Origin: an uncultured Eubacteriales bacterium
GTDB taxonomy: Bacteria > Acidobacteriota > Aminicenantia > Aminicenantales > Aminicenantaceae
DNA length: 47,117 nucleotides
Direction: 5' to 3'
Assembly: GCA_964435925.1 (NCBI GenBank)
Contig: CAYTBG010000005.1
Span: forward strand, 1 to 47,117
The notes under the pieces were generated by a model. The model was not told the origin of the DNA and ran no database searches. It was given only the letters and a program-made list of their open reading frames with translations. Positions 19,576 to 45,706 of the stretch are shown here, one piece after another (within the stretch, counting starts at the first letter, position 1; every line of letters starts with the position of its first letter). A program made the translations under genes and the position numbers.

Positions 19576-20265
19576 TTATCCCTTAAATTTATATCCTACA
19601 CCTCGCACACCAATGATGTACTTTGGATTAGATGGTTCGTCTTCAATTTTCTTTCTCAGATGAGCGATATGCTTATCCACCGTACGGGGTGTGACATAGA
19701 CATCATCACCCCAGACCTCATCAAGTATCAAGTCACGGTGCATTACCTGGTCTTTATGCTGAATGAGAAAGTGAAGCAGAGAAAATTCAAGTGCCGTTAG
19801 ATATATTGGCTTACCCTTTTTTTTCGCTTCATACTTAATAAAGTCAACATCGACATCGCCGAAGTGATATATATCGATTCCTTGCTGAAGTTGCTTCATC
19901 CTTCTAAGGAGGGCTTTAACACGGGCAAGAACTTCCCGGGGGCTAAATGGCTTTGTGACATAATCATCGGCACCCAGCTCCAATCCGAGAACTTTATCTA
20001 TCTCCTGGCTTTTGGCAGTTAATATCAGGATGGGCGTTGTAATTCCAGCTTGGCGTAATTGTTTACAGACTTCAAAGCCGTCCATTTTTGGCAGCATGAT
20101 ATCAAGGATGATGAGATCGTATCCTTTCTCTTTTGCCGCGGAAAGGCCTTGTAGCCCATCTTTTGCGCTGGAAACTTCATAACCCTCAAGTCTGAGGTTG
20201 TCCTCCAGAGCCATCAGGATACTTTCCTCATCCTCGATGACAAGAATTTTCTCCATTTCACTCAT
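19576..20265 (-). CDS. OmpR/PhoB-family response regulator RR1
   Basis: IEDE, IILDIMLP, GADDYVTKPF, winged helix RTVDKHIAHLRKK, VRGVGYKF. Confidence 0.97.
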   Translation of the reverse strand: MSEMEKILVIEDEESILMALEDNLRLEGYEVSSAKDGLQGLSAAKEKGYDLIILDIMLPKMDGFEVCKQLRQAGITTPILILTAKSQEIDKVLGLELGADDYVTKPFSPREVLARVKALLRRMKQLQQGIDIYHFGDVDVDFIKYEAKKKGKPIYLTALEFSLLHFLIQHKDQVMHRDLILDEVWGDDVYVTPRTVDKHIAHLRKKIEDEPSNPKYIIGVRGVGYKFKG

Positions 20266-20272
20266 CCTCTAT

Positions 20273-22399
20273 TCATTGAAGTGGAAGCTTTATCGAAAAT
20301 GTGCTGCCATGTCCCGGCTCGCTCTCAACATGAACGCTGCCGTGATGGGCTTCCGCAATTTGTTTGACTAAAGTCAATCCAAGCCCGCTGCCTTTTACCA
20401 TCCGTGTCAGCTCATCACCTCCACGATAGAAGCGTTCAAACACCTTGTCAATCTCTTCTTTCTTGATGCCAACACCAAAATCTTGGACAGCGATAACAAG
20501 ATATTGATCTTTTATAAATGATGAAACAACAACCTTTTTGGCTTCGCCAGAAAATTTGATGGCATTATCTACCAGATTATTAATCGCTTGGGTTAGAGCT
20601 GCGCTGTCAACCTCAATTAAGGGCAAAGACTTTTCAATTTTTGTCTGGATAACAGAACCCTCATGACGCACCCGATCTTGAATGGTCGAAACAATCTCTT
20701 GCAATAGTGCGCCGATATCAACGTTCTTAAACTCAAATTCTTTACGGCCTTCTTCCATTTGAGCAAAATTTAATATGTTTTCGGTGAGTAAAGAAAGTCT
20801 TTCACTTTGTTCTAAAAGAACATCATAGTACTTCTGGCGCCGCTCTTCAGAAGGTATCCTTCCTGCTTGAAGCATCTCTGCCAACTGCCTGATAGAAGTC
20901 AAAGGACTTTTGAACTCATGGGAGATAGTAGAGACAAAATCAGATTTCATTTTTGCAAGCTCCAGTTCATGGGAAACGGTGCGAATGGTCAAGATCGAAC
21001 CGAATATCAGAATACCCGCAATGAGAAGAAACATATAGAAATAAATGCCTCGTCGTGAAGTAAGAAAAGTCTCAAGAAGACGCTGCTCCTGTTGATGAAA
21101 CTCGAGCAACCAGTCCGGAAAGTTCCCTGCGAAATTTGTTTTGACAGTAACTGATCCTGAAGGCGAGTTTTCTGACTTCAGGATAACTTTACCATCCCTT
21201 CCTCTAACAATCCATTCAGTTTTCTCAGAGGAAACATTGCGCTGCAATGTTTGGTTGAGAACGTTATCTTTTAGATATTCAGCGTTGAGCAGAAGACCCC
21301 AAGTTTCATTATTTTCGGCTCCTTTCCCCGCATGTTGGCTCAACAATGAGACAAGATAAGAGTGCCTTCCGATCTCCAGTGTAAACCGTTTCGCATAGTC
21401 GCGAGGGGTATCCGAATCTCTAGAAATTTTTGCCTGCAAATCTGCTGCTGCACCTTCCTGGAAATCAAGTAATCTTTCTGTTATGTTTCTTTGTTTCTTT
21501 TCCTCGCCTTCTAATATCTGAAGAGTATTTTTGTAAGATTGGAGCTGTGAAGATAAGGATGGCCGGGAGAGAATTTCATCAATTGATTCTTTGGCGCGCT
21601 GTGTAAAAAAGTCATATTGAGCTTTTTCAAGCCTCCATTCTCTTTGAATCAGGCTTTTGTACGACTCAGTGAATGTTCTGGCGGAGCTTAAAGAATCATC
21701 GATTTCTAAAAATAATGAGCCCAGTTCCAGGCGAGCAACCAGTCCTAAGGGTATGCCGTCTGCAACTCGCACCTGGCTGAAGTCCTGAGCAATTGTCTCG
21801 TACGATTTTATGGCGTCCGGGAAGAATTTAGATTTTTTTTGGACTCTGGCAACCGCGCTTAGTAATTCTCCTTTCACCTGAGGGTCGGAAACCTCTCCCA
21901 TCGTTCTTTGATAGCTGATCAAAGCATCACGATATCTTTTCTTTTGAAATTCCAACTGCTGAGCAGCTTGAATCTTTCTCACCAAAGTGGGAGTTGGGGA
22001 AGAAGCAGAGAAGCGTTGCCTGCTCCCGTCCGGAAGAAAGAGAAACTTTGCTACGGGGAAGTAAATTTTTTTGAAGTCCTGGAAAAGAAAAACCTCCTCC
22101 ACTAGAGGATGCTGATTTTTTAGACTTTCCAGTGAATTGGAAAAAGCAGGCTTCGCGATTCCCTGGCTATTAGCAACTGTATTTAAGAAAGTCTGTTCAA
22201 CTTCGAAAATACTTTCATCAATAGATCTGGTGACCATTTCTGCAATTCTACGGTGTTCATCCAATCTCTTTTTTTCCAGCAAGGCCCGGTCATTCTGAAT
22301 ACCACGAAAAGCCAGATAACCCAGGAGCAGGCTCGGTAATCCGATACCCAGAAAGAAGAGGAGGAGTATCCTTTTGCGTTTATGTATTGACAGTCCCAT
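20273..22399 (-). CDS. Sensor histidine kinase HK1 with large TPR-containing extracytoplasmic domain
   Basis: TM1, about 420-aa loop with TPR-like helices (EFQKKRYRDALISYQ; AIKSYETIAQDF; GIPLGLVARLELG), TM2, ISHEFKSPL, NLVDNAIKF, GSGLGL. Confidence 0.95.
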   Translation of the reverse strand: MGLSIHKRKRILLLFFLGIGLPSLLLGYLAFRGIQNDRALLEKKRLDEHRRIAEMVTRSIDESIFEVEQTFLNTVANSQGIAKPAFSNSLESLKNQHPLVEEVFLFQDFKKIYFPVAKFLFLPDGSRQRFSASSPTPTLVRKIQAAQQLEFQKKRYRDALISYQRTMGEVSDPQVKGELLSAVARVQKKSKFFPDAIKSYETIAQDFSQVRVADGIPLGLVARLELGSLFLEIDDSLSSARTFTESYKSLIQREWRLEKAQYDFFTQRAKESIDEILSRPSLSSQLQSYKNTLQILEGEEKKQRNITERLLDFQEGAAADLQAKISRDSDTPRDYAKRFTLEIGRHSYLVSLLSQHAGKGAENNETWGLLLNAEYLKDNVLNQTLQRNVSSEKTEWIVRGRDGKVILKSENSPSGSVTVKTNFAGNFPDWLLEFHQQEQRLLETFLTSRRGIYFYMFLLIAGILIFGSILTIRTVSHELELAKMKSDFVSTISHEFKSPLTSIRQLAEMLQAGRIPSEERRQKYYDVLLEQSERLSLLTENILNFAQMEEGRKEFEFKNVDIGALLQEIVSTIQDRVRHEGSVIQTKIEKSLPLIEVDSAALTQAINNLVDNAIKFSGEAKKVVVSSFIKDQYLVIAVQDFGVGIKKEEIDKVFERFYRGGDELTRMVKGSGLGLTLVKQIAEAHHGSVHVESEPGHGSTFSIKLPLQ

Positions 22400-22662: not shown

Positions 22663-24822
22663 TTACTTTTTACTTTTGACCAGCGGCAGAAAATTCTCCA
22701 TCACCCAGAATTCTGGACTGTCACCCTGGTATCCTGAAAAAACAAACCTCTCCCCATCAGGTGACCAGTCAAGATGATACATGTTTATATCTACCAGATC
22801 TGTCTCAATGTCTTCGATACTCCCATCGTCTATTGAAATAACTCTAATATTCTTACCATAACTAGAGCTGGGTGCGTAATTAAAAGCGATCCTTTTGCTA
22901 TCCGGAGACCAGGCCAATTCGATGTTGACATGAACCATTTTTACTTTCGCTACCACACGCGAAACACCATCATTTAACGAGAGGATTTTCAGCGTCCCAC
23001 TATGCGAATTCTCTTCTTCGTCACTGGAAAAATAAGCAATCAGTTTCCCATCAGGTGACCATGCTATGGGACAGCACCAAACACTGTCGGAATCCGATGT
23101 CAAAACATTCGGATCTCCACCATTTAGCGGAACGGTGCAGATGTTCACCTCACCAAATCCCGTAGAATAAACCTTATCAGCTCTTGCGCGTACATAGGCG
23201 ATGGTCTTTCCATCCGGCGACCAACAAGGGAATCCGTTAAGAACGGATGCAGGCGTTTGGGTGAGCTGTTTTGGTTTTCCTCCAACAACGGGTAGTGTCC
23301 AGATTTGCCAGTGCCAACTCGTATCTTTTTTTGTCTGTCCCGACAAAACAATCGTCTTTCCATCCGGAGATACATCATTTCCTCCTCCATATGCCGGTTT
23401 GACGATTTTCTCATCAAACTGAATGGGAACAGTTTTAACTTTGCCTCCCTCAGCAGGAACAACAGCTAATGAAAGTTTTTCCCAATCACCACTCTTCTCA
23501 TCTATATTATTTGTGTGAAATATTCTTTTCCCATCGGGAGACCACCTGGGTTGTGCCGGATACCCTCCATGTGAGACCAACGCCGCCTTGCCACCAGTTG
23601 CCGGCAGCGTGTAAAGGCCAAATTCCGTATGACTGCGAAATACCGCTCCGATTTTATTATCAGGCGTCCATCCTGCTAAAAACATAATTCCCCCAGTTCC
23701 TTCAGGAATGTCAATCTTAACTAACTCCCCGGAGGCCACTCCATCCTCTCCAACAGGTATTATGCAAATTTGCTGGCTCTTCAGGTCCAGAAAAGCAATC
23801 GTGTCACCGTCAGGTGACCAGGTAGGACTTGACGCATTCCCGGCATTGGCAACCAGTTTTGGAGTCCCGTTAGACGCGGGTATCACCCATAAACCTCCAC
23901 CCGCTCTACCCAAATTTTTGGTGTCTACGTACGCGATCATCTTTCCATCAGGAGAAAAGACCGGTTCTCTGGCTTGGGCATCAACCAATTGCTTCGGCAA
24001 GCCCCCATCTACGGAGATTGTATGGATATGACACTCCTTATTGTCAACCGATGAAAAAGCCAGGATCTTTCCGTCCGGAGACAAACTCATTTTATAGTTT
24101 ACGATACGTGCATCCCGGTAATTTTCATATACTTTCCTTGGCTTTCCACCTTCGGCTGAAACAATATACATACCCTGTTTTCCCTCTTTTTCTTTCCGTT
24201 TATCACTTTTTGTCCAATCATTGAATACGATCCATTTACCATCACCAGACCAGGCAAGTCCGGACCAATCAACTTCCACATCGTCGGTATTCAGTATGCG
24301 AGGAGCCCCGGGAAATTCAGAGCCCAGTTTCCCCGATAGGGGCATCATCCAGAGCTTTTTGTCAGATGGAGAAGCGAAGATCACTTTTTTGCCATCCGGA
24401 GAGAACTGCATAACCCAAGAAAGCTTGGTTGGAACCTGAAGCTTTCGGAAAGTAGGTTTATGAGGCACTTTTTCTATTGTCTCAGTCAGCCTGGCAAGTC
24501 TTTCTTTTGCCAGAGCCACTACTTGCTTCTGCCCAGGATACTCGTCTATGAGGCGTTGGTAGGCTTTTTGTGCCTCTTGTTTTCCTAGTTTTTCGTAGCA
24601 CAGTCCGATATGATACAGCGCTTTGGAGGCAGTGGCCTCATTCCCTGAAAAATCATTCAGAATCCTTTCATAAATTGCAATAGCCTTCTCTAGCTCCCCT
24701 TCAACTTCCTCTTTGTATAAGCCGGATTGGTAGAGCTGTTCTGCGCTTTGCTGGACGTATGCTGGTGATACCAAAACTAATGCTAAAGCAAAAACACCAA
24801 GCATAATAAATCGTGATCTCAT
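22663..24822 (-). CDS. Secreted TPR + double PD40 (TolB-like) beta-propeller protein A
   Basis: Sec signal peptide, N-terminal TPRs (ALYHIGLCYEKLG), 12 [WFLV]SPDG-like blades, C-terminal FWVMENFLP. Confidence 0.9.
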   Translation of the reverse strand: MRSRFIMLGVFALALVLVSPAYVQQSAEQLYQSGLYKEEVEGELEKAIAIYERILNDFSGNEATASKALYHIGLCYEKLGKQEAQKAYQRLIDEYPGQKQVVALAKERLARLTETIEKVPHKPTFRKLQVPTKLSWVMQFSPDGKKVIFASPSDKKLWMMPLSGKLGSEFPGAPRILNTDDVEVDWSGLAWSGDGKWIVFNDWTKSDKRKEKEGKQGMYIVSAEGGKPRKVYENYRDARIVNYKMSLSPDGKILAFSSVDNKECHIHTISVDGGLPKQLVDAQAREPVFSPDGKMIAYVDTKNLGRAGGGLWVIPASNGTPKLVANAGNASSPTWSPDGDTIAFLDLKSQQICIIPVGEDGVASGELVKIDIPEGTGGIMFLAGWTPDNKIGAVFRSHTEFGLYTLPATGGKAALVSHGGYPAQPRWSPDGKRIFHTNNIDEKSGDWEKLSLAVVPAEGGKVKTVPIQFDEKIVKPAYGGGNDVSPDGKTIVLSGQTKKDTSWHWQIWTLPVVGGKPKQLTQTPASVLNGFPCWSPDGKTIAYVRARADKVYSTGFGEVNICTVPLNGGDPNVLTSDSDSVWCCPIAWSPDGKLIAYFSSDEEENSHSGTLKILSLNDGVSRVVAKVKMVHVNIELAWSPDSKRIAFNYAPSSSYGKNIRVISIDDGSIEDIETDLVDINMYHLDWSPDGERFVFSGYQGDSPEFWVMENFLPLVKSKK

Positions 24823-24860
24823 GATCGATCCTCCTTTTTACATTTTATTTTTCAGGAGGA

Positions 24861-24929
24861 AAAATACCACAAGAAATATTCGAGTGAATGAAGCTTGTGT
24901 AACGATTGTGTGAAGATTCGGTGAAGATT
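24861..24929 (-). promoter_or_regulatory. Module-1 box (four 11-bp direct repeats) plus extended -10 for protein A
   Basis: Sense strand AATCTTCACCG|AATCTTCACAC|AATCGTTACAC|AAGCTTCATTC, then 19 nt, then TATTTT preceded by TGG. Confidence 0.7.
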
Positions 24930-25529
24930 AAAGATTTGCTCCGAGTTCGCCCAATCACCTTCAAAACGCATACAATTTGTTTTGGGAATTTTGGAGTGAT
25001 TTCGCCTTATTAAAATTATTGGATAGACCCACAAACATTAAGGTAAAATCTGTAATAAACGATCCAGCCCAACAATAAAGGTTCCTCTCTCTACCTGCTT
25101 GAGATAGCCTGATGCATCTATCACCTGAAAAGCTGCAGGAACTTTAATCCGATTTTTAAAATATTTGTCGTATTTATGTTCCTTGCTGACAGACCTTGCC
25201 ACCCGGGCATGATAATTTTTGTATGGCTATTTTCTATAATAGTAGAAAAAAGTCAAGGCCATTTTTCACTAAAGTAGAAATTAGACAATCTATTGCTTTC
25301 CTCTAAAATTGGGGTGCAGGCCTCAATATTCAAGATTGCTGGATAGATGCGTTTTTAATTTATTTTTTTGTAATCGGAAAAATAAAAGTTGCTTTAGCCA
25401 GTTAACTCAAAAGAAATAAGGGAATCGTCCCCCTTGAGTTATTTAACTTTTAGCCCAGTAACGGAGGGGCAGAACTTACAAAGCTTAGATGAAATAAAAG
25501 AAGAGCAATGATTAAGATTGCATATTTTT

Positions 25530-27677
25530 TCATTTCTGCCCTCCTTTACCTTCCTTCTTATCTTTAGGCAGGAAATTCTCCATCACCCAGATCTCTGGGA
25601 GCATTGTGTGACCAGAAAGAGAGCCAAAAGTAATCCGTTCGCCATCAGGATGAACACTCAGCTGTATGAACCCACGCATTGTCAATCCCAGATTTTCGGC
25701 TTCACCTCCTTTAGCCGGAATTCTCCACAGCTCCCTTTCTCCTCCTTCAGAATCGGGTTTTCTTTTGGAGAAATATATATAACGACCGTCAGGGGACCAA
25801 TCGATATCAATGATGTTGCGCCCCTTGAATCCAAATCTATGCAATTCGACAGGTTCCCCTCCCTTAATCGACATTACCTTCAGCACTCTCAAATTTTCCT
25901 CTTCCCGCAAAAGTAAGGCCAGTCGCTGACCGTCAGGGGAGAGAGCTAGGATATTATTATCATGAGGGGGATTTCGAAAAAGCTCTTCCTCTTTTCCAGT
26001 TTCTAGATCTCGAACAACAACCGGATAATATTCGGCAGACTTTGTTTCATGGATATAGAAGATTAACTTTCCATCTAAAGATAATACCGGCGACCAGAGT
26101 GCGTCATAAGATTCTTTTTCCTTTTTCGGAATTAGTAGAGTGGCTTCACCAGTTTGAGCATCAATCTTGTAAATACCCCCACCGGACTGAAAACCCTCAG
26201 CAGGCAGCAGGATGGAACGCCCATCAGGGCACCAATGAGGACGATAAAAGTGAACAAATTTGTCTTTAAAATTAAATTCACGGACTCTTCCTGATTCCGC
26301 AGAATAGAGGCAGAGAATCGATTGACGTTTCCCTGGTCCCCTGAGAGAGACGTAGACAAGGTTTTTTCCGTCAGGTGACCAATCTGGACAGTTATTGTTT
26401 CCTTCGTAGGGAAGAGGATCCTTCTTCGGCTGTTCAATGATATTGCCCGTTTCTGGATCAAGCTTGGCGGAGTAAATATCCCACGTGGCTCCCTCAGTGC
26501 TGTAGTAAAACGAACCATCCTGGCTGAATCCTAGGGACACGATTATCCCTATATCCCGCCTTACAAGCTGAGGATCTCCCTGAGGTTTTCCTTCCAAGAC
26601 TGGAATGATCCAGGCATCCCTGGTTCCTGTGCGGTCGCTTGAGAACAGGATCCATTTTCCATCAGGAGACCAACCAAGCAGATAATCATCAGCCGGATGG
26701 GCGATGAGCGGAATTTTTTTCGTCCCATCTGATGAGATTAGGGAAATATCTTTCTTCCTAAATTCTTCCTTCTGTGGAAAGTCATAGACAATATAGCGGC
26801 CATCAGGGGAAAATCTTGCCTTCATCGGAAAAGGGTCCACTGCATCAAAGGTTTTAAGGATTTGGATAGGGCTGTCTTTAATTGAAATTAAACCTAGCTG
26901 CCAACGTTTCGCCTCATTCAAGAAAAAGGCCAGAATGTTCTTGCCGTCAGGAGACCAATCTGCCAGCTCAACCCATCCCTTGTTATAATCAACTTGGTGG
27001 AGAAGGCGAGGTTCTGAACCGTCAAGTCCTACGATATGCACTTCAACTTGACCTTTAGCACCATCCAACCAGATATAAGCCAATTGCTTTCCATCGGGCG
27101 ACCACACAGAAGTCTCAGCAAAAGCAAAAGATTCATCCCAGGAACCTTTATGGGTGAGATGGCGATTCTTCCCAGTGGCCATCTCTCTTATAGCCAGGTT
27201 GCCGGTTTCCCAGTCTACAAAAGATAGATATTTCCCATCAAAAGAAATCTCACCACTGCCATCCACTTCTTTGCCTGTCCAGACTTGCCTTACTTGAAAT
27301 TCTTTATCTCCTTTTTCTAAGGCAGCCTGTGCTCTGAGGAGAATTGACAATTTTTCCTGCGCCATCCTTACAATATCCCTCTGGCCGGGATAATCGCTGA
27401 TCACCTTTTGGAAAGCTTCCTGGGCTAATTTGGCCTTTTTCTGCCCCAGCTTCTCGTAGCAGATTCCGATACGGAGTTGGGCTTTGGCGGCGAGAGATTC
27501 ATCCTTTGTTTCAGTGACAACCTTCTTATAGAGAGAAATCGCCTCCTCGAGGTTTCCCTCCCCGCGCTCTTTGGCCAGCGCTTTTTGAAACAGATCGTAT
27601 CCGCTTTGAGCGGCAGAACTTGCAAAGATAAGAGGTAAAAAAATGAGAATTGCTATCAAAACTGTAAGTTTTTTCAT
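25530..27677 (-). CDS. Secreted TPR + double PD40 beta-propeller protein B
   Basis: Signal peptide (..ASSAA/Q), TPR AQLRIGICYEKLG, 12 PD40-like blades, IWVMENFLP. ATGA overlap with C. Confidence 0.9.
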   Translation of the reverse strand: MKKLTVLIAILIFLPLIFASSAAQSGYDLFQKALAKERGEGNLEEAISLYKKVVTETKDESLAAKAQLRIGICYEKLGQKKAKLAQEAFQKVISDYPGQRDIVRMAQEKLSILLRAQAALEKGDKEFQVRQVWTGKEVDGSGEISFDGKYLSFVDWETGNLAIREMATGKNRHLTHKGSWDESFAFAETSVWSPDGKQLAYIWLDGAKGQVEVHIVGLDGSEPRLLHQVDYNKGWVELADWSPDGKNILAFFLNEAKRWQLGLISIKDSPIQILKTFDAVDPFPMKARFSPDGRYIVYDFPQKEEFRKKDISLISSDGTKKIPLIAHPADDYLLGWSPDGKWILFSSDRTGTRDAWIIPVLEGKPQGDPQLVRRDIGIIVSLGFSQDGSFYYSTEGATWDIYSAKLDPETGNIIEQPKKDPLPYEGNNNCPDWSPDGKNLVYVSLRGPGKRQSILCLYSAESGRVREFNFKDKFVHFYRPHWCPDGRSILLPAEGFQSGGGIYKIDAQTGEATLLIPKKEKESYDALWSPVLSLDGKLIFYIHETKSAEYYPVVVRDLETGKEEELFRNPPHDNNILALSPDGQRLALLLREEENLRVLKVMSIKGGEPVELHRFGFKGRNIIDIDWSPDGRYIYFSKRKPDSEGGERELWRIPAKGGEAENLGLTMRGFIQLSVHPDGERITFGSLSGHTMLPEIWVMENFLPKDKKEGKGGQK

Positions 27678-29943: not shown

Positions 29944-30052
29944 AATTTAGTTCTTCCAGTTTTGGAATGTGTCATGATATTGTGTTGATAATGCAATTTT
30001 TATGTCAATTTTATTCCTGAAAATTGTCTGCTTTTTGTCATGAAAATGTCAT
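29944..30052 (-). promoter_or_regulatory. Module-2 box (eight phased 11-bp units) plus -10 for the C-B operon
   Basis: Sense ATGACATTTTC|ATGACAAAAAG|CAGACAATTTT|CAGGAATAAAA|TTGACATAAAA|ATTGCATTATC|AACACAATATC|ATGACACATTC (30052-29965); -10 TAAATT at 29949-29944. Confidence 0.7.
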
Positions 30053-32740: not shown

Positions 32741-32784
32741 ATTCTAAAATACCCCCAAAGATAAAGATGTCACGAAAATGTCAT
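32741..32784 (-). promoter_or_regulatory. Module-2 box plus -10 upstream of HK2 (putative autoregulation)
   Basis: Sense ATGACATTTTCGTGACA (32784-32768) is a 16/17 match to the first units upstream of C; -10 TAGAAT at 32746-32741. Confidence 0.72.
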
Positions 32785-35077: not shown

Positions 35078-35140
35078 AATGTAGGTTTTTTAGTTTCTCA
35101 AGTTGTCAAATAAAACTAAAAAAATGTAAAAGATTGTCAT
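35078..35140 (-). promoter_or_regulatory. Module-3 box plus -10 for protein D
   Basis: Plus-strand half sites TGTCA/ACTAA/TGTAA/TGTCA at 35104, 35115, 35125, 35135 (11-10-10 spacing); -10 TACATT at 35083-35078. Confidence 0.72.
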
Positions 35141-37311: not shown

Positions 37312-37374
37312 AATGTAAGTCTTTGCTTTTCCCGAGTTGTCAAATAAAAGTAAAAGAATGTAAAAGATTGTCAA
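37312..37374 (-). promoter_or_regulatory. Module-3 box plus -10 for protein E
   Basis: TGTCA/AGTAA/TGTAA/TGTCA at 37338, 37349, 37359, 37369 (11-10-10); -10 TACATT at 37317-37312. Confidence 0.72.
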
Positions 37375-37515: not shown

Positions 37516-38202
37516 TTACCCAACAAATCGATATCCTTCTCCGTAAACTGAAAGGATATATTCGGGATGAGATGGATCCCCCTCAATCTTTTTCCTCAAT
37601 TTCAATATATGATTGTCGATGGTTCGGGTGGTAGGATATTTTTCATAACCCCAGATTTTATCCAGCAAAGCCTCTCTCGTTACCACTTCTTCCCTATGGG
37701 AAATGAAGTATTTTAAAATCTCTACTTCTAGTGATGTAAGATCCAATTCCTTATCTTTGCGCCTGACTTTGAAGTGTGTAAAATCAATCTCGACATCGCC
37801 AAAGCGATAAACTTCTGGGGCTTTTTTTCTCTCCCTCTTCTCGCGTCTTAAGTGTGCTTTTATCCGCGCTAAAAGTTCCCGGATGCTGAAAGGCTTGGTC
37901 ATATAATCGTCAGCTCCGATTTCCAATCCAAGCACTTTATCAATTTCTTCTCCCTTGGCTGTCAGCATGATAATAGGAATGCTTATATTTTTTTGACGGA
38001 GCTCTCGACAGATATCCAGGCCATTCATCTTGGGGAGCATAATATCAAGGATAATCAGTTGGGGTCTGTCTTCCAGGGCTTTGCGAAGTCCTTCCTCACC
38101 ATCCGCTGCCCAATCCACCTCATATCCCTCGTCTAACAGGTTGAGTTTCAACCCTTTTACCAGGTCTTCTTCGTCTTCTATTATTAATATTTTCTCTTTC
38201 AT
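37516..38202 (-). CDS. OmpR/PhoB-family response regulator RR3
   Basis: IEDE, IILDIMLP, GADDYMTKPF, RTIDNHILKLRKK. Confidence 0.97.
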   Translation of the reverse strand: MKEKILIIEDEEDLVKGLKLNLLDEGYEVDWAADGEEGLRKALEDRPQLIILDIMLPKMNGLDICRELRQKNISIPIIMLTAKGEEIDKVLGLEIGADDYMTKPFSIRELLARIKAHLRREKRERKKAPEVYRFGDVEIDFTHFKVRRKDKELDLTSLEVEILKYFISHREEVVTREALLDKIWGYEKYPTTRTIDNHILKLRKKIEGDPSHPEYILSVYGEGYRFVG

Positions 38203-38204: not shown

Positions 38205-40337
38205 TTATTTATCCTTTTTTGGGCCGGAGAGAGGGAAAATCACAGAAAAGACACTACCCTTTCCTGGCTCGCTTTCGACCTTAATCCGGCCCCCATGAGC
38301 TTCGGCGATGTGTTTAACCAGGGTCAGGCCCAGGCCGCTTCCTCCTGCTTCGGAAACAATTTCATTTTTTACCCTGTAGAATCTGTTGAAAATTCTTGAT
38401 GTATCCTTAGGCGAGATTCCTATGCCTTTATCAGCAACCTGAAGGACTGCATTTCCGTTATCTTTGAATAATTTGACGGTTACTTCTTTTATCTTGGGCG
38501 AAAATTTCATGGCATTGCTTAAGAGATTAACCAGCACACTGGCTATAGCTTCTCCATCAAAACTCATCTCCGGAAGATCTGAGGCAATTTCTTTTTGCAC
38601 AGAAAAACCCTTTTTCTCTAAATGATAACGGTATGACTCTAAAGTGTCGCGAACGATCTGGGCCAAGCTGCCTTTTTTAAAATCGAATTCTTTTCTGCCC
38701 ATCTCAATCCGGGAAAAATCAAGAACATTGTTTATCAGGTGCGATAGGCGCTCGCTTTCTTTGGTTATTATCTCATAAGCTTCTTTCCTTTCCTCTTTCT
38801 TAAGGTCTTCTTTTCGCTGGAGCGTCTCCCCATAAAGGCGAATCAGAGTGAGAGGTGTTTTTAGTTCGTGAGAGATATTATGAACGAATTCGGTCTTTAA
38901 GCGTGTAGTTTCTGATTCACGGGAAATATCACGCACTATGAGAAAAGCACCCATAAGCATTAAAGCCACAATAAAAGTCAGAAGAACTCCGTAGAGAAAA
39001 TTCTCCCGCCGTGCGGTCAGTTCAAGGTCACTGAACGCAGGCTGAGAGACAAGAAGTTTCCAGGGAAAAGGGAATTGGCGATAAGATAAACTGAGAGAGT
39101 CTTTTGAAGTTAATTCCTCTTTTCCGGTTAAGATATTCCGACCTCTCTCATCGATGACTTGAAGAGAAAGTCCGGTATCTTTTGTCAGATTTTCTAAAAT
39201 TTTTGGGAATATTTCTTTTTTCAGGGAACTTAGATCCCAACAAAAACCACCATAAAAAGTCCTTTCTGACTGAAAGTTAGGCAGCACAGAGTAAGAGACA
39301 AGACAAAATTCTTCTTTTTGCGCGACAAGCAAGCGTCCTTGTTGTGCTTCGCCTCCCATACGAGAAAGTGTCAGCTTTTCTTTTATCTTTGGGACGGCCT
39401 CTCTCTTTATGAAATCTGTAAAAAGGAGCGCCTCTAAATAAGAAGATCGTTGTTTCTGGAGGCCCAGATAAGATTCTCGAATTTCAGGAAATCTTCCTTC
39501 AGAAAATTTATCATCGAGAATTGACTCTATTTCGACGATGAAAAAGTCATAGGTAGGAAGGTTAACCGGCCAACCTCCTTTCCTAATTTTTCCGTAGAGC
39601 GAGAGCAAAATTTTCAGGCTATTCTCTTCTCTATTTCGGAGCTGCTCGATTTCATACAGCTGAAAGGCAGCCAATATGCCGTAAGGATGCCCCGCTTTAT
39701 TCAGAAATTGCCCGTATTCAGCCGAAAGGTCGCTATATACTTTATAGGCTTCACTATATTTTTTTGAGGATAAAAGACAGCGCCCCAAAGCTCCCAAGGC
39801 TAATGCTTTGTGCTGGTTTGTGGGGGCAAGCGATGTACACTTCCGGTATAATTCAGCAGCTTGGACGTAATTCTTTCTAGAGAATTCAAGAGATTCCGCT
39901 TGCTTAAGAGCCTGAGCAAATTCGGTATTTTGTACATTCTTTTCCCCTGGGAAGATCGAAATGTCTTCTTTTCCGGTTTTAGGGATAATTATTTGGTACT
40001 CGGCATTAAGCAGAAATAGTTGGCCTTCGATTTCCTTTGATAATTTAGAATAATCGGAGAGAGCTTGTTCTGTTTCTTTTATGCCAGTTAGACGAGTGAA
40101 ATTTTCAATCTTTAAAGCTTCTTTTTCATGCTCAAGAAGCTCGCCTTCGATAGATTTCAGGGCGGATTCTCCTGAAATCCAGAGGTTCGACTCGAGTATC
40201 TTTTTTACCGATTCCCGCCTTTCGGCAAAAGTGCTAAAGCTTAAATAACCAACAACTAAGGAAGGAAGTAAAATGGCTAAAAGAAAAATAAAGACTATTT
40301 TCCTCCTGGCCAATATCCCCTGGGTGAATATTCTCAT
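38205..40337 (-). CDS. Sensor histidine kinase HK3 with TPR-containing extracytoplasmic domain
   Basis: Two TMs, TPR (EFSRKNYVQAAELY; ALGALGRCL..KKYSEAYKVY; GHPYGILA), ISHELKTPL, NLLSNAMKF, GSGLGL. Confidence 0.95.
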   Translation of the reverse strand: MRIFTQGILARRKIVFIFLLAILLPSLVVGYLSFSTFAERRESVKKILESNLWISGESALKSIEGELLEHEKEALKIENFTRLTGIKETEQALSDYSKLSKEIEGQLFLLNAEYQIIIPKTGKEDISIFPGEKNVQNTEFAQALKQAESLEFSRKNYVQAAELYRKCTSLAPTNQHKALALGALGRCLLSSKKYSEAYKVYSDLSAEYGQFLNKAGHPYGILAAFQLYEIEQLRNREENSLKILLSLYGKIRKGGWPVNLPTYDFFIVEIESILDDKFSEGRFPEIRESYLGLQKQRSSYLEALLFTDFIKREAVPKIKEKLTLSRMGGEAQQGRLLVAQKEEFCLVSYSVLPNFQSERTFYGGFCWDLSSLKKEIFPKILENLTKDTGLSLQVIDERGRNILTGKEELTSKDSLSLSYRQFPFPWKLLVSQPAFSDLELTARRENFLYGVLLTFIVALMLMGAFLIVRDISRESETTRLKTEFVHNISHELKTPLTLIRLYGETLQRKEDLKKEERKEAYEIITKESERLSHLINNVLDFSRIEMGRKEFDFKKGSLAQIVRDTLESYRYHLEKKGFSVQKEIASDLPEMSFDGEAIASVLVNLLSNAMKFSPKIKEVTVKLFKDNGNAVLQVADKGIGISPKDTSRIFNRFYRVKNEIVSEAGGSGLGLTLVKHIAEAHGGRIKVESEPGKGSVFSVIFPLSGPKKDK

Positions 40338-40381: not shown

Positions 40382-40443
40382 ATTTTATCAAATCCAACTA
40401 TTAAAATGTCAAAAAAATGTAAAACTTTGTCAGCAAATGTAAA
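40382..40443 (-). promoter_or_regulatory. Module-3 box plus -10 upstream of HK3 (putative autoregulation)
   Basis: TGTCA/TGTAA/TGTCA/TGTAA at 40407, 40418, 40428, 40438 (11-10-10); -10 TAAAAT at 40387-40382. Confidence 0.72.
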
Positions 40444-40547
40444 AGCTAATTTGATAAGCGGAACGAAAATTTGAAGGAGAATACGTTACACTCAAGGAAC
40501 TGAAGCGTGATATCGAAAAGGAAAAGATGGGACGTAAGTAAAATCGC

Positions 40548-40587: not shown

Positions 40588-40643
40588 AATAGGGAAATAT
40601 TTTTATAACTTGGGGAGTTCTTTGCTTCTGCCTTTCTGCTATC

Positions 40644-42767
40644 TCACTGAATGCCTTTTTTTACTAAAGGCAGGAAGTTTTCCATCACCCAGACTTCATT
40701 TGCTTGAGTATAAGTGTCGAAAGCGATCTGATGTCCATCAGGATGAACATGCAGACCGCGCATTTTTTTATCTGTCTGCCAGAGCTTTTGAGGCTCTCCC
40801 CCATCTGAGGAGATTTGCCATAAGCTAGTGCCATAATCTTCGGCTTTGGTAAAGAGTACATGTTTCCCGTCTGAAGACCAATCAAAGGCTCTAATAACTG
40901 CCGCTTCTTTCAGTCTGAGTAATTCCCGGGCCTTTTCTCCAGAAACGGGCATAATCAATATGCTCTCGGCGTCTTTTTCAGGGTAGGCGATGCCAAAAAG
41001 CAGCTTTCGACCATCAGGCGAAAGAGCTAAAATGCTAAATAGATTGGGGTCACAATAGAGCTGCTGCTCCAGGCCCGAGTTGACTTCGCGCCTCAAGATG
41101 CAGCCTCGGTTTACATAAAAAATAGCTTTCCCGTCTTTTGACCATTCTCCCCTGTGCCAACCCCAGTCATCGATCCCCGGTGCATATGGTGCTATAAGGA
41201 TGACTTTTCCGTCACGAACATCGATTTTGTAGAGTCCTCCGACATAATCCTTTTTTTTGTCCTTTTTATAGAAGCTTGTGACCAGAATTGAGTGCCCATC
41301 AGGAGACCAGCGGGGATTATCAAAAAAATCAAGTTCACAAGGAACCTCTCGGTCTTTTCCAGTTTTAAGGGATCGAATATGAAGAATATACTTAAAAAAA
41401 ACGGGCCCTGCAGGCTTGAGTTGCTCAAGGATATAGGCTATGTACTCACCGTCGGGTGACCACTGAGGGGAAAAGTTGGAGCCTAAAAAGGGTTGTTTCA
41501 AAGGAGCCTTGACTTTTCCTATTGCCAGATCGATTGAAGCAATGTAGGAATTAGACCAGCTTCGAAACATGCTAAAAAAGAAGGAGCCATCCTGCTTAAA
41601 TCCCAAGGGGAAAACTTTCCCTATCTCGCTTTTAATCCATCGGGGTGATCCCTTAAGCCTGCCATTTTCGACCTGAATAAGCCAGAGGTCCAAGGCTCCT
41701 GTGCGGTCGCTAATGAATATAACTTCCTTTCCGCCTGGTGCCCAACCAAGCAATTTGTCATTTGCTGAATGCTCAATCAAAGGAGTCTCTCCGCTTCCAT
41801 CCGTGGCAAGCAGGTAGATGTCGTATTTTCCGGAGTCTTCCTTGACCGGAAGGTCAAAGGCGATATACCGGTCATCTGGTGAATGACACACACAATCTTG
41901 TGTTGTTTGCCCTATATCAGATATTTTGAGAACGCGAATGGAACCATCCTTGACAGAGACCCACGCAATCCGGAACTTTTTGTCTTTTCTGCCATACATC
42001 CTGACCGCAATGTGTTTGCCATCTGAAGACCATTGGGCCGGATAGACTTCATAATCTTTGTTACTGTAGAGAATACGAGGAGATGAGCCATCGATCCCGA
42101 TGAGCCTTAAATCATAATAAAAATTCTTATCAGACAGTTTATTATACCAGGAGTAGGCGATTTGCTTGCCGTCAGGAGAAATTTTGGAATAAAACGCAAA
42201 TTGCTGGGCAGCTTTTAAGGATGCTTCGTGGGTGAGGCGGCGCTTTTTCCCCGTAGCAAGCTCGTGAATAGCCAGATCTCCAGTTTCCCAATCCACATAA
42301 GAAAGATAACGGCCATCAGGAGAAGGACCTCCGAAAATATCCACATCAGGGCCTGACCAGACCTGGCGGATTTTGAACTCTCTATCACCTTTTTCAACCA
42401 GAGCCTGGGCCTTTAAAAGAATGGCAATTTTTTCTTCGGCCAACTTGATTTCTTCAGTTTGCTCAGGATAGCTCTCAGCCACTTTCTGGTAAGCCTTTAG
42501 TGCTTGCTTCATTCCCATTTTTTCGTAGCACATACCGATTTGAAGCTGAGCTTTTGCCCCCATTTTTCTGTTGTCAGGAAAGCTGGTTGTAATTTTGAGG
42601 AAAAGCTGGATAGCCCCCTCCAAGTCTCCTTCTGCTTCCTTCTTGAAGATCGCGCCTTCGTAAAGTTCCTCGGCTGACTCTTGGGGCAGAGCTTCTCGCA
42701 AACAGATGAGAGAAAACAGAATTGATATTGCTATGACGAGCCAGAGCGAAATTTTTTTATGGTTCAT
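40644..42767 (-). CDS. Secreted TPR + double PD40 beta-propeller protein F
   Basis: Signal peptide, TPR AQLQIGMCYEKMG, PD40 blades, VWVMENFLP. Confidence 0.9.
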   Translation of the reverse strand: MNHKKISLWLVIAISILFSLICLREALPQESAEELYEGAIFKKEAEGDLEGAIQLFLKITTSFPDNRKMGAKAQLQIGMCYEKMGMKQALKAYQKVAESYPEQTEEIKLAEEKIAILLKAQALVEKGDREFKIRQVWSGPDVDIFGGPSPDGRYLSYVDWETGDLAIHELATGKKRRLTHEASLKAAQQFAFYSKISPDGKQIAYSWYNKLSDKNFYYDLRLIGIDGSSPRILYSNKDYEVYPAQWSSDGKHIAVRMYGRKDKKFRIAWVSVKDGSIRVLKISDIGQTTQDCVCHSPDDRYIAFDLPVKEDSGKYDIYLLATDGSGETPLIEHSANDKLLGWAPGGKEVIFISDRTGALDLWLIQVENGRLKGSPRWIKSEIGKVFPLGFKQDGSFFFSMFRSWSNSYIASIDLAIGKVKAPLKQPFLGSNFSPQWSPDGEYIAYILEQLKPAGPVFFKYILHIRSLKTGKDREVPCELDFFDNPRWSPDGHSILVTSFYKKDKKKDYVGGLYKIDVRDGKVILIAPYAPGIDDWGWHRGEWSKDGKAIFYVNRGCILRREVNSGLEQQLYCDPNLFSILALSPDGRKLLFGIAYPEKDAESILIMPVSGEKARELLRLKEAAVIRAFDWSSDGKHVLFTKAEDYGTSLWQISSDGGEPQKLWQTDKKMRGLHVHPDGHQIAFDTYTQANEVWVMENFLPLVKKGIQ

Positions 42768-42879: not shown

Positions 42880-43560
42880 TTAGCCTCTAAATTTGTATCC
42901 AACTCCCCTGACACTAATGATGTATTCAGGGTTAGCAGGGTCGTTCTCAATTTTCTTTCTAAGATGGACGATATGGGGGTCAATGGTCCGAGACGAAACA
43001 ATAGCGTCCTCCCAAGCATCATCGAGCAGATTATCCCTGGTCACCACTTCTCTCTTATGCTCGATAAAATACTTGAGCAGCTTGAATTCTAAAGCGGTCA
43101 AGTGCAATATTTTCCCGGCCTTGTGAACCTCATGGCTTTTGAAATTTACAGTCACATCGCCGAATTTGTAGACCTCTCCGATGTCATCCTTCTGCCTTGT
43201 CCTTCTTAAGATGGCCTTTACTCTTGCCACTAATTCCCTTGAGCCCACAGGTTTGGTGACATAATCATCAGCACCTAATTCCAGTCCCAACACTTTGTCC
43301 ATCTCCTCGGTCCTCGCTGCCGTAAGCATAAGAATGGCTGTATCCTTGCCCGCTTCTTTGAGCTTCTTGCAGACTTCGAAACCACTCAGTCCTGGAAGCA
43401 GTATGTCAAGGATTATCAGTTGGAACTCCTGATCCAATGCCAGCTTTAAACCCTCCTTGCCGTCGAGGGTTGCAGAAACTTTGTATCCCTCAAACTCCAG
43501 ATCGTCTTTTAATCCCATCAGAATGGACTTATCATCTTCAACAATCAGTATCTTATCCAT
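42880..43560 (-). CDS. OmpR/PhoB-family response regulator RR4
   Basis: VEDD, IILDILLP, GADDYVTKP, RTIDPHIVHLRKK, VRGVGYKF. Confidence 0.97.
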   Translation of the reverse strand: MDKILIVEDDKSILMGLKDDLEFEGYKVSATLDGKEGLKLALDQEFQLIILDILLPGLSGFEVCKKLKEAGKDTAILMLTAARTEEMDKVLGLELGADDYVTKPVGSRELVARVKAILRRTRQKDDIGEVYKFGDVTVNFKSHEVHKAGKILHLTALEFKLLKYFIEHKREVVTRDNLLDDAWEDAIVSSRTIDPHIVHLRKKIENDPANPEYIISVRGVGYKFRG

Positions 43561-45706
43561 TTTTATCCTTCTTTCTTGCCTTTGTTTGTTTTACCGGAAG
43601 CACCATTGTAACTTTTGTCCCCTTTCCCGCATCGCTTTCCAACAATACCTCGCCTCCATGAGCTTTGATGATATGAGCCGTTAGGGTTAGACCTATTCCG
43701 CTTCCTTTGATGCTTATTTTGTGCGTTTCATCAGACCTGTAAAACTTTTCAAACACTTTTTTCTGCTCTTCCTTGCTTATTCCTATCCCCTCGTCCCCCA
43801 CTTCCAAAAACACACTCTGGGCGTTCGACCAGACCCGAAGAAATGCTCTCGGGCTTTGTCCTCTGAATTTCAAAGCATTATCGAGCACATTGAACAGAGC
43901 CCGGGAAATAGCTTCTTTATCGGCTAAGACTTTTGGCATCTGCTCGGGTATCTCTGTCTCCAGGAGGAATTTCTTCCCGGAAGTCTGTCTTTGAAATCGA
44001 GAAGCAACGTCCTTTGCCAGTTCAGCGATGCCTGTCTCTTCGAATTGGTATTCTTTCATTTCCGCTTCTATTTTAGAAAAATCGAGAATGTTTTCAACGA
44101 GTCGACTCAGGCGTTCGCTTTCATCGGTTATAGTTTCATAGTACAGTTGTTTCTTTGCTTCTTCCTTAACCCGTCTTCTCTTAAGAAGTTCGGCTAAATA
44201 TCGAATGGAAGTCAAAGGCGTTCTGAAATCATGGGAAACTGTGGACACAAATTCTGATTTCAATTTGGCTAACTCCAACTCTTTAGCCGTGCTCCTGATC
44301 GCCAAAAATCCTCCAAAGAACAGGGCAACTATCACAACGCCTACAGAAAAGAGGTAGATATTCCGTCTCTGCTTGAACTGTCTTTCAGCTAATCCTAGCT
44401 CGCTCTGAAAAACATTGACTTTCCAAGGTGGGAAATTCTCTTCAAAGCCTTGAGAAAAAGTTAACTGAGGAAGGGGCTTTTGAAGAGAAGTCATATCTTT
44501 CCCAGACACAGCGTTCCCGAATTCATCTTTTATCTGGACATGCCAATCCTTTTTAAGCGGAAGTCTTCCCAAAATCTCCGGAAGAAGCTTTTTGGACAGG
44601 ACTTCGGAATCTATTCTAATTCCCAGGACTGTATTATTTTTGATAGATGTACAGGAAACGAGATAGGCTTCGTTACCAATTGTCTCAGCGTGGTGATAGA
44701 AATTTCCGAAGGAAGAAATGGAGGAAGATGTTTTTGTCTTGATAAGAGGAATGACTTTTGTTACAAGATTCTCCCTTGCTTGCATCCTGCTTAGTTTTTC
44801 TTCTTCGAGCTGATTGAATTTCTGCCCTTTTTCCATGAAACTCTTCTTTACTCCAGACTCATCTATACTCTCCAAGGACGTATCAAGCATAGCTTTAACT
44901 TTCTTCCGGTAGAAATAAAATTGATTCTTGCTCAAAGGCCATCTGGATTCCAGGATGTTTTCGTGAAGCTCAAAAAAGGCTTCAACCGCCTTCATCTTTC
45001 TGTTTATATTCCAGTAGATGCTTCCTATCTGATACTGAGCTATCAGCCCAAGGGGTATTCCATCAGGACTTGGCACGGCTGTATGTTTTTTCAAAATCTT
45101 TTGATAGGCTTCAATAGCCTTAAAAGGATTCCCAGACTTTGCGAAACACCGTCCAATGCAATTCAAAAGTATGGCATGGGAAGCATCATCTGAAGTCTCA
45201 CCCATCAGTTTTTGGTAAGACTCTATTGCCAGAGAATAGTTTTTTGCCTTGAACTCAGACATCTCTGCTTTTTTCAGGAGAGGATGACGCTCTATCTCCA
45301 TAGTTTGTTTTTTCCTAATCCGTCCTTCATGGGGAAGAAGGAAAAGCGATTTTCCCAGCGGGAAAGACACATCTCCTCTTTTGTTAATCAGGAAAATCTC
45401 AGAGACTAGCTCTTCGCTTTCAGCTATTCTTTGGCAGACTTCTTTTAGCCCCTTTTCGTCGGATTGATTTTGAGGGATGCCGATCAGTTTGCTAATCCTT
45501 TCCTCAGCCTCTGATACGGATGCTTCGACTTCCTTAACGAGGAGTTCTGTTAATCTTTGCTGTTCTTCCTCGATATCCATTTTCCTGACCAGCTTTTCTC
45601 TTTCTGCTTCCCGAATAGCAAATATGGCCAGAACAATGCTCAAGAGGAATATGGCTACAGAGAATAGTATTATCGCCCTTTTTCGCCAAGTAAGCTTTAT
45701 TATCAC
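43553..45706 (-). CDS. Sensor histidine kinase HK4 with TPR-containing extracytoplasmic domain
   Basis: Two TMs, TPRs (KNYSLAIESYQKL; LNCIGRCFAKSGNPFKAIEAYQKI; GIPLGLIAQYQIG), VSHDFRTPL, NVLDNALKF, GSGIGL. Confidence 0.95.
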   Translation of the reverse strand: MIIKLTWRKRAIILFSVAIFLLSIVLAIFAIREAEREKLVRKMDIEEEQQRLTELLVKEVEASVSEAEERISKLIGIPQNQSDEKGLKEVCQRIAESEELVSEIFLINKRGDVSFPLGKSLFLLPHEGRIRKKQTMEIERHPLLKKAEMSEFKAKNYSLAIESYQKLMGETSDDASHAILLNCIGRCFAKSGNPFKAIEAYQKILKKHTAVPSPDGIPLGLIAQYQIGSIYWNINRKMKAVEAFFELHENILESRWPLSKNQFYFYRKKVKAMLDTSLESIDESGVKKSFMEKGQKFNQLEEEKLSRMQARENLVTKVIPLIKTKTSSSISSFGNFYHHAETIGNEAYLVSCTSIKNNTVLGIRIDSEVLSKKLLPEILGRLPLKKDWHVQIKDEFGNAVSGKDMTSLQKPLPQLTFSQGFEENFPPWKVNVFQSELGLAERQFKQRRNIYLFSVGVVIVALFFGGFLAIRSTAKELELAKLKSEFVSTVSHDFRTPLTSIRYLAELLKRRRVKEEAKKQLYYETITDESERLSRLVENILDFSKIEAEMKEYQFEETGIAELAKDVASRFQRQTSGKKFLLETEIPEQMPKVLADKEAISRALFNVLDNALKFRGQSPRAFLRVWSNAQSVFLEVGDEGIGISKEEQKKVFEKFYRSDETHKISIKGSGIGLTLTAHIIKAHGGEVLLESDAGKGTKVTMVLPVKQTKARKKDKNG

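Follow-up and report, generated by a model that had tools for sequence, protein, structure and literature searches.

Tandem two-component modules with TPR-bearing sensor kinases and exported TPR-propeller partners in an uncultured Aminicenantales bacterium: a candidate three-component receptor system

Two-component systems that operate with a separate exported protein are a known kind, of which MtrAB-LpqB, ExoR-ExoS-ChvI, LuxPQ, and CpxP are examples. In Actinobacteria, MtrAB comprises an OmpR-family regulator and a kinase that are nearly always linked to the gene for an exported beta-propeller protein, LpqB, which excerpts of PMC2732212 (citing Hoskisson and Hutchings 2006) present as a proposed kinase modulator. 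In Rhizobiales, according to passages of PMC10659215 that also compare CpxP with ExoR, periplasmic ExoR, which proteolysis removes, associates physically with the ExoS sensor domain, and ExoS pairs with an OmpR-family regulator. Passages of PMC8534201 describe how LuxQ senses via a separate periplasmic protein, LuxP, bound to its tandem-PDC sensor, and how the periplasmic region of another kinase, VbrK, is made of a tetratricopeptide repeat (TPR)-like distal domain and a PAS-like proximal domain. Here, we analyze a tandem array of related modules on a 47,117-bp contig (C5; CAYTBG010000005.1), which in its entirety is the window of this study and which belongs to a 2.84-Mb metagenome-assembled genome (172 contigs, 88% complete) of an uncultured sediment bacterium of the Aminicenantales.

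Between positions 19576 and 45706, 14 genes on the minus strand encode four sensor kinases (HK1 to HK4), four OmpR-type regulators (RR1 to RR4), and six proteins that join TPRs to a double PD40 propeller (A to F, hereafter partners). In the open reading frame (ORF) list and its translations, the order is HK4-RR4-F, HK3-RR3-E-D, HK2-RR2-C-B, A, HK1-RR1, and the Pfam families are those expected from the tandem minus-strand array of four modules that an initial annotation of this DNA had claimed. HisKA and HATPase_c in all four kinases, and Response_reg and Trans_reg_C in all four regulators, match above their cut-offs, which identifies the pairs as OmpR/PhoB-type two-component systems. From sequence analysis of gene content, topology, linkage, mosaic evolution, and shared repeats, together with predicted folds and docking, we lean slightly toward the view that each module is a three-component unit, in which a kinase-specific TPR adaptor carries an exchangeable ligand-binding propeller and is expressed under feedback from the regulator. 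Specifically, the kinase would have a TPR array inserted in a PDC-like sensor, with the second transmembrane segment (TM2) leading almost straight into the phospho-acceptor helix. The N-terminal domain of the exported partner, with two to three TPRs and specific to its own kinase, would dock on the TPR insert. We infer that the double PD40 propeller, which varies by module, is the ligand-binding part; its occupancy would alter how the partner is seated on the kinase and so change phosphorylation of the OmpR-type regulator. The regulator, in turn, would bind module-specific direct repeats before its own operon and before the partner gene or genes, bringing the partner under feedback. Furthermore, a single kinase could accept two partners that differ in their propellers, as with E and D on HK3 and C and B on HK2.

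The modules share with MtrAB-LpqB, as excerpted in the source cited above, a regulator, a kinase, and an adjoining gene for an exported propeller protein. Yet, LpqB is described there as a lipoprotein with GerMN and GMAD1 domains, whereas the partners combine a TPR adaptor with a double PD40 propeller. Among the Pfam matches of A to F (E <= 0.01), neither GerMN nor Gmad1 appears, and no L-[AS]-[GA]-C lipobox was seen when the partner N-termini were read by eye, F alone having a Cys there, in a non-fitting context (SLIC). The MtrB equivalog NF040691 scores 138 to 158 bits against a cut-off of 450, through the kinase core alone; the kinase sensor is unlike that of MtrB, and MtrAB-LpqB occurs once per actinobacterial genome in contrast to the tandem arrays with domain swapping found here. 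Similarly, ExoR-ExoS-ChvI, as excerpted, resembles the modules in combining a periplasmic repeat protein with a kinase and an OmpR-family regulator, but ExoR has no propeller. No Sel1 family, the repeat type attributed to ExoR, is among the Pfam matches of A to F. The ChvG/ExoS equivalog NF058527 scores 114 bits for HK1 against a cut-off of 740 and is absent from the 25 best matches of the other three kinases. In addition, exoR is not known to be linked to exoS-chvI.

A different affiliation is implied by the databases, where relatives of the partners are named "tetratricopeptide repeat protein" or "Tol biopolymer transport system component." TolB and YbgF are indeed the best NCBIfam matches, and the partners resemble TolB and CpoB (YbgF) in their PD40 propellers and TPR_6-type repeats, with TPR parts that are similar to the YbgF TPR. 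The genes could accordingly play no part in signaling and be co-amplified neighbors or surplus Tol-Pal components (TolB/CpoB paralogs), an explanation that we find hardly credible. Scores fall far below the cut-offs for TolB (TIGR02800: 142.7, 132.0, and 130.9 bits for A, B, and D against 343.15) and YbgF (TIGR02795: 30.4 and 32.2 bits against 90.1). The propeller is double rather than single, it is fused to the TPRs, and the genes lie in two-component modules rather than in a tol-pal operon. Moreover, synteny contradicts it: the linkage to the kinase family described below extends over 13 family labels and holds in both directions. The name "Tol biopolymer transport system component" is therefore misleading for these proteins, and our analysis corrects it. 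Taken together, the modules fail the defining features tested for MtrAB-LpqB, ExoR-ExoS-ChvI, TolB, and CpoB/YbgF. The architecture had not been recognized as a described system in the initial annotation, and no earlier description was found in literature searches, whose coverage stopped short of subscription journals. The claim is nonetheless only partly valid, as published three-component systems include MtrAB-LpqB, with its secreted propeller, and that of ExoR, a TPR-like periplasmic protein. The kind of system is thus known, while this variant, with its unusual modular evolution, is undescribed.

The association of the three gene types extends beyond the window. A fifth module, HK5-RR5-G, fills contig C134 of the same genome, where all seven TPR-propeller proteins and all five kinases with such a loop sit in modules, with none outside. 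A hidden Markov model (HMM) built from the five module regulators found six ORFs genome-wide at E < 1e-40, five of them the module regulators themselves, so that modules with loop kinases make up nearly all OmpR-type signaling in this genome. Across the phylum, a profile of five loops matched 47 of 401 sampled genomes and 36 of 228 genera. Outside this genome there were 64 matches; we fetched 40 regions spanning 46 of them (the other 18 being mostly the weakest) and annotated these regions with HMMs built from the window proteins. These regions held 42 kinases with loop and core matches, of which 35 were assessed and 7 had less than 1.7 kb of downstream sequence, too little for assessment. An OmpR-type regulator gene follows the kinase in 35 of 35 cases. 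In 29, from 21 genomes and 13 family labels, the kinase-regulator pair is followed by a TPR-propeller gene, either directly (26, including 4 in which that gene is split into fragments) or after intervening DNA (3; L038, L051, and L060), and one more retains a TPR remnant alone (L053). Homologous kinases elsewhere are thus usually linked to TPR-PD40 genes, the outcome for which a neighborhood check had been proposed. The reverse search, run in five genomes, gave 18 partner-type TPR matches at E <= 1e-15. Of these, 16 lay on the same strand as, and just downstream of, a kinase-loop match, the remainder being one match at a contig start and one unpaired. Tandem module arrays also occur in L036, L038, L048, and L084. 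Judged from gene order, the linkage of kinase, regulator, and propeller protein is no local accident.

Within this conserved arrangement, the two halves of the partner have different histories. The DNA of D and E is 75 to 95% identical from 124 nt upstream of the start to about codon 118 and about 50% identical thereafter; at the protein level, the N-terminal ~125 residues are 82% identical compared with 35% over the whole length. B and C show a similar, weaker DNA pattern, with 73% identity over the N-terminal 130 residues compared with 44% overall. The same mosaic is seen in other genomes. In L074, a regulator 93% identical to RR3 accompanies a partner whose TPR domain is 92% identical to that of D and whose propeller is 82% identical to that of A. 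In L032, the regulator matches RR5 (84%) and the partner TPR matches G (70%), with a propeller closest to that of D (44%); in L037, the regulator matches RR2 (78%) and the TPR matches C (76%), with a propeller closest to that of B (39%). We compared similarity matrices over 30 modules with Spearman correlations and 500 permutations, the figures being descriptive because related modules are not independent. TPR similarity followed that of the regulator (rho = 0.42; 0 of 500 permutations reached this value), the kinase core (0.53; 0 of 500), and the loop (0.21; 2 of 500), while the corresponding values for the propeller were 0.08 (67 of 500), 0.12 (22 of 500), and 0.15 (17 of 500). The nearest neighbor was the same as that of the regulator for the TPR domain in 15 of 29 modules and for the propeller in 5 of 29. 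As read from these alignments, the partner TPR tracks the identity of kinase and regulator, and the propeller is swapped between modules. The pattern also bears on the assignment of A, which lies upstream of its kinase. In L072, an ortholog of A precedes orthologs of HK1 and RR1 across the same 266-bp spacer. L077 and L080 have the canonical order (kinase, regulator, partner). Their regulators are RR1-type (80% and 78% identical), and the partners behind them have TPR domains closest to that of A (66% and 53%) and propellers of the other subtype. A can therefore be placed with HK1-RR1, as had been claimed, since its TPR type travels with RR1-type regulators in either gene order.

On the kinase side, the candidate docking site is the large loop. 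Each kinase has two hydrophobic segments with about 370 to 420 residues between them, which places the loop outside the cytoplasm, and HisKA starts some 10 to 15 residues past the second segment, leaving no space for a HAMP domain. Pfam finds TPRs in the loops weakly and below threshold in HK2 to HK4, and not at all in HK1. A profile of 45 loops, however, matches consensus-TPR chains at E 7e-37, the HK1 loop aligns with the others across the same invariant positions, and the loop profile matches the partner TPR profile with 96.9% probability (E 1.4e-10). Together with a structure model of the HK3 loop, these results bear out the proposal that all four loops contain TPR-like helices. The model (predicted local distance difference test [pLDDT] 88.1; predicted template-modeling score 0.82) consists of a 43-residue helix, two strands, nine TPR-like helices at 108 to 298, a sheet with one helix at 303 to 401, and a last helix running into TM2. 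Its TPR part aligns with many TPR domains, among them LGN (Z 14.2) and the YbgF TPR (2xev; Z 12.8, root-mean-square deviation [rmsd] 2.5 over 121 residues), values so common among helical repeats that we take from them the fold class alone. The non-TPR part, modeled with the insert in place, aligns with the periplasmic domain of LuxQ (2hj9_C; VIA Z 11.7, rmsd 3.7 over 183 residues spanning 21 to 402). With the same model, Foldseek returned no match at E <= 0.001, and weak Cache rows (9niv and 6f9g) at E ~0.01. By this model, the kinase sensor would be a TPR array set into a PDC-like (LuxQ-like) scaffold. LuxPQ differs in several respects: LuxP is a periplasmic binding protein and not a TPR-propeller protein, LuxQ is a hybrid kinase without a TPR insert, and the LuxQ model scores 126 to 131 bits against a cut-off of 1200. 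VbrK, as excerpted, has TPR-like and PAS-like parts in one periplasmic region, but it is described there as binding its ligand in its own TPR-like domain, without a partner protein; no VbrK chain is among the matches listed for the HK3 loop model, with which VbrK was not compared directly. The kinase loop is not covered by any NCBIfam or Pfam model, nor is there a curated model for the partner. The sensor family is nevertheless large for one without a name, numbering 810, 2633, and 8319 clusters at E <= 1e-30, 1e-10, and 1e-3 among 1.84 billion representatives, the weakest of which probably include plain TPR proteins.

Contact between loop and partner was addressed with one complex prediction, in which the loop of HK3 (38205..40337, minus strand; residues 31 to 450 of the protein, modeled as a PDC-like scaffold with a TPR insert) and residues 28 to 425 of D (32894..35026, minus strand; the module 3 partner with a B-type propeller, from Pfam and paralog comparison) were both supplied as alignments. 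The interaction prediction score from aligned errors (ipSAE) was 0.72, 0.71, and 0.72, compared with 0.03 for the best of three controls; the score mark is reached by 116 of 157 solved complexes and by 2 of 215 mismatched pairs. Contacts coincide between the runs to at least 61%, and the partner pLDDT is 75 or more. On the kinase side, the predicted contact lies in the TPR insert (39354..39926, minus strand), which is delimited by the model and by TPR matches, and involves loop residues 118 to 123, 156, 183 to 196, 230 to 239, and 271 to 278. On the side of D, it involves the mature N-terminus, the first TPR helix, and a K-L-G turn (residues 28 to 50 and 84 to 86), all within the TPR adaptor domain at residues 28 to 128 (34643..34945, minus strand). 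E121 and R156 of the loop (E151 and R186 of the full protein) belong to the predicted docking surface. In the loop family, where mean column identity is 24%, both rank among the three most conserved positions. Conservation of the kinase-side interface is 1.78 bits compared with 1.42 in the rest of the loop, a difference reached in 49 of 5000 permutations. The docking model supports binding between the HK3 loop and D, and the interface check suggested alongside the original interpretation accordingly returned a predicted TPR-to-TPR contact.

A link between regulator and partner is suggested by repeats shared upstream of the genes. In module 3, direct repeats (TTTTACAT / TGACA) upstream of HK3 (40407..40444, minus strand), identical in the orthologous L074, form a candidate RR3 site, and repeats of the same type (TGACAATCTTTTACAT) lie upstream of E (37335..37373, minus strand; conserved in L074) and of D (35101..35139, minus strand). 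The best ungapped score between the region upstream of HK3 and those upstream of E and D was 17, reached by 0 of 200 shuffles and compared with 8 to 9.5 for non-cognate pairs; genome-wide, three of four matches to TGACA-N2-5-TTTTACAT lie upstream of HK3, E, and D. In module 1, four repeats spaced by ~11 bp (TCTTCAC, TCTTCAC, CGTTAC, and GCTTCAT) upstream of A (24885..24930, minus strand) are a candidate RR1 site that is conserved in L072, L079, and partly L080. A second copy, recovered by the shared-repeat test and pattern scan, lies directly past the RR1 stop (19544..19575, minus strand). The region upstream of A is collinear with 87 nt past that stop (score 17; 0 of 200 shuffles), and both genome-wide matches to the module 1 pattern fall in module 1. 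In module 2, the pattern scan gave ATGACATTTTCGTGACAT upstream of HK2 as a candidate RR2 site (32767..32784, minus strand) and, ahead of C, the pair ATGACATTTTCATGACAA and ATGACAAAAAGCAGACAA where RR2 stops (30024..30052, minus strand); two 18-mers from these places agree in 16 positions, and three of five matches to the pattern are in module 2. Direct repeats in this layout are expected of sites for OmpR/PhoB-family regulators. The shared repeats suggest autoregulation and induction of the partner by its own regulator, the direction of regulation and the promoter sites used being what we infer from them. By eye, TTAAC repeats spaced by 11 bp also seemed to lie upstream of F, HK5, and G, but the pattern tried gave 0 matches. 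An Rfam scan of the window found no RNA family, and a promoter/terminator consensus scan was indecisive (41 promoter-like sites compared with 28 expected).

These same repeats invite a simpler explanation, that the propeller proteins are regulated output alone, produced when needed as periplasmic binding, scavenging, or chaperone-like proteins that do not touch the kinase. Repeats of the regulator type stand before partner genes, and the 2.84-Mb genome has hardly any further matches to the same patterns, so the modules may mainly control themselves, and the partner genes of the window have intergenic regions of their own (112 to 256 bp). Against this stand a TPR domain that, unlike the propeller, tracks the identity of kinase and regulator, and a docking prediction that passes its controls. 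In L043, L049, and L057, furthermore, the partner start overlaps the regulator stop by 4 to 8 nt, such that the partner would be co-translated with the signaling genes. We consider this explanation unlikely; it also overlaps in part with the one that we favor, given that CpxP-like cases combine output with modulation, as passages of PMC10659215 indicate.

Several results weigh against a kinase-specific adaptor under regulator feedback. On the side of the partner, conservation in the interface does not exceed that elsewhere in the TPR domain (2.45 compared with 2.46 bits; 2588 of 5000 permutations reach the difference), and the controls for the complex were unrelated proteins rather than non-cognate TPR partners, so that generic stacking of TPR on TPR would also fit. 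The co-segregation of TPR domain and regulator could partly reflect the fact that the TPR-coding end of the gene adjoins the regulator gene, as recombination inside the partner gene would produce the same picture; the occurrence of A-type TPRs with RR1-type regulators in both gene orders speaks against adjacency as the cause, although the loci are few. Because kin are not independent, the permutation figures are overstated. With respect to the repeats, the patterns were defined after the sequences had been inspected. Those of module 2 were not significant in the first test (31 of 200 shuffles), which had cut the site, the regions upstream of HK4 and F in module 4 share no repeat (175 of 200 shuffles), and the comparison in module 5 was masked by a repeat element. 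Finally, five of the 35 kinases have another gene or nothing recognizable in third place (L045, L052, L061, L066, and L071). In two of these (L045 5818-7242, minus strand; L052 5012-6433, plus strand), the product of the third gene is an exported protein of 473 residues that matches no Pfam family and may be an alternative third component. Nevertheless, as far as computation goes, the earlier interpretation is supported, namely that the propeller proteins are periplasmic receptors or feedback modulators that dock on the cognate kinase through TPR-TPR contact and are induced by the cognate regulator.

The remaining question concerns the propeller itself. The Pfam matches of A to F are TPR_6, PD40, and other propeller-type families, none of them catalytic, and each protein has one N-terminal hydrophobic segment, with signal-peptide cleavage read from the sequence by eye; the composition first proposed for the six partners therefore stands. 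The estimate of about 12 blades, made from A and B, agrees with 12 strict motifs of the W/F-S-P-D-G type in A; B to F, where blades are degenerate, have 9, 6, 7, 10, and 5. Two propeller subtypes are present, one in A and E and the other in B, C, D, and F. A model of A (pLDDT 87.2) shows a signal-peptide helix at 3 to 17, five helices at 27 to 118, a low-confidence linker, and an all-beta part at 124 to 709. Foldseek matched it to double propellers (among them 2ymu, LRP6, Aip1, and tricorn protease) at low TM-scores of 0.24 to 0.35, matches that are too generic and low-scoring to name a specific structural relative. Likeness to S9 and tricorn-type peptidases is confined to the propeller families DPPIV_N and Peptidase_S9_N, as the partners stop at the last blade, without a catalytic domain.

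The resemblance to the substrate-gating propellers of S9 and tricorn peptidases leads to a further possibility, in which the partner, like ExoR or CpxP, is an inhibitor that sits on the kinase until proteolysis or titration takes it away, with the propeller as a handle for degradation or for stress sensing instead of a receptor for a small ligand. It draws on the same docking and feedback evidence as the receptor explanation, and it has a precedent in ExoR, a periplasmic repressor of ExoS under proteolytic control (passages of PMC10659215). That the modules contain no conserved protease gene, and that diversified and swapped propellers fit distinct ligands better than one common stress signal, both count against an inhibitor, although neither point is decisive. 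We regard this possibility as more doubtful than that of output alone. For the ligand in the receptor explanation, a lead is that the PD40 propellers of TolB and S9 peptidases handle peptides and proteins. The cassette also appears outside the modules: P0108 is a 965-residue protein in which a BlaR1-type Peptidase_M56 membrane domain (E 1e-72) is fused to a double propeller that is 61% identical over 85% of A, so that this cassette also forms the external part of a signal transducer of a different type. It is tempting to extend the proposal accordingly, though we do so tentatively, to a plug-in receptor system of Acidobacteriota, in which a TPR adaptor for one kinase carries exchangeable double-propeller cassettes that are shuffled between kinases and also mounted on BlaR1-type proteases, one kinase reads several receptors, and new specificities would arise by exchange of cassettes with the kinase itself left unaltered. 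If the pairing of a kinase-specific adaptor with an exchangeable receptor is correct, the modules would represent a compact natural case of rewired two-component input and a source of orthogonal kinase-adaptor pairs for study. They also offer leads into how Acidobacteriota, including the Aminicenantes, sense their environment; these bacteria abound in soils and sediments, and most have not been cultured.

The genes of the array, all on the minus strand, are as follows in order of transcription, with families taken from Pfam. In module 4, HK4 (43553..45706) has two transmembrane segments (11-29 and 452-470), an extracytoplasmic loop of ~420 residues with TPR matches, and a stop that overlaps RR4 (42880..43560) by 8 nt; F (40644..42767) is the partner, as judged from TPR_6, PD40, and paralog identities. 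In module 3, HK3 is followed by RR3 (37516..38202), by E (35151..37259), a partner with an A-type propeller by paralog comparison, and by D. The ORF of E extends to 37343, but by its sequence a start at 37259 is more likely, as E then begins MNSKK..., like D. In module 2, HK2 (30738..32714), whose loop is shorter by topology (~370 residues), overlaps RR2 (30049..30741) by 4 nt at its stop; the partners are C (27674..29911) and B (25530..27677), and the start of B overlaps the stop of C by 4 nt. Module 1 consists of A (22663..24822), with modeled TPR helices (27 to 118) before the double propeller and a gene order as in L072, HK1 (20273..22399; placed by Pfam, topology, and loop alignment), and RR1 (19576..20265). 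Within each class, paralogs match at E 1e-39 to 0, with identities of 49 to 58% for regulators, 28 to 39% for kinases, and 25 to 48% for partners. The assembly appears sound from contigs of four DNA sequencing runs. Those from the probable source samples cover 32800-40700 with no discrepancy, breaking only where D and E share stretches, and the junction of E and D is bridged by a contig of ~870 nt in two other samples (end of E, intergenic region, and start of D). A has an 85% identical counterpart on a contig of Ca. Aminicenans sakinawicola.

A number of smaller features accompany the partner genes. All seven partners, A to G, close with W/Y/F-x-M-E/D-N/D-F-L-P and a short lysine-rich tail (e.g., 22663-22710); in the model of A, this motif (W-V-M-E-N-F-L-P) forms the last strand and a disordered basic tail, and we have considered a sorting signal or a TPR-binding tail. 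The leader of A (~24826-24868, minus strand) contains CCTCCT ~20 nt upstream of an AAGGAGG ribosome-binding site, onto which it could, from its sequence, fold back, and the CCTCCT/AAGGAGG pair is kept upstream of partner genes linked to RR1-type regulators in L072, L079, and L080. Past the RR1 stop (19162-19575, minus strand), the second copy of the A-promoter repeats is followed by a 44-codon ORF (MRFGLIVPSSNTTMEAEFWRMA...), and the same start of a reading frame lies after the partner gene in L074 (10464 onward); a partner gene was thus probably once located downstream of RR1 and later deleted. A 27-codon ORF at 25450-25533 (minus strand; MKKYAILIIALLLFHLSFVSS...) begins 4 nt before the stop of B, as B does at the stop of C, and resembles the signal peptide of B and C, such that it is probably a remnant of a third module 2 partner gene. 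Between the RR3 stop and the repeats upstream of E, a 140-bp stretch (37375-37514) contains TTATTGGGGTCAG twice along with an inverted copy. It is missing from the orthologous L074 and swapped for 31 other letters in a contig of run X5, and it looks like an inserted element. On contig C134 (L001), a 38-nt palindromic repeat (ATTGTCATTGCGAGG...GCAATCTCA) lies upstream of both HK5 and G and dominated the motif comparison for module 5.

Outside the array, in 1-19126 and 46032-46826, the window encodes an exported 264-residue protein without any family, a DUF4382 protein, a myo-inositol-1-phosphate synthase, a 943-residue MMPL transporter, and an extracytoplasmic function (ECF) sigma factor with a zf-HC2 anti-sigma factor. 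A sigma-54 regulator and its kinase occupy 8587-11308, and a MacB-type ABC exporter set, made of two 785-residue permeases, an ATPase, and an HlyD-type adaptor, spans 3-8164.

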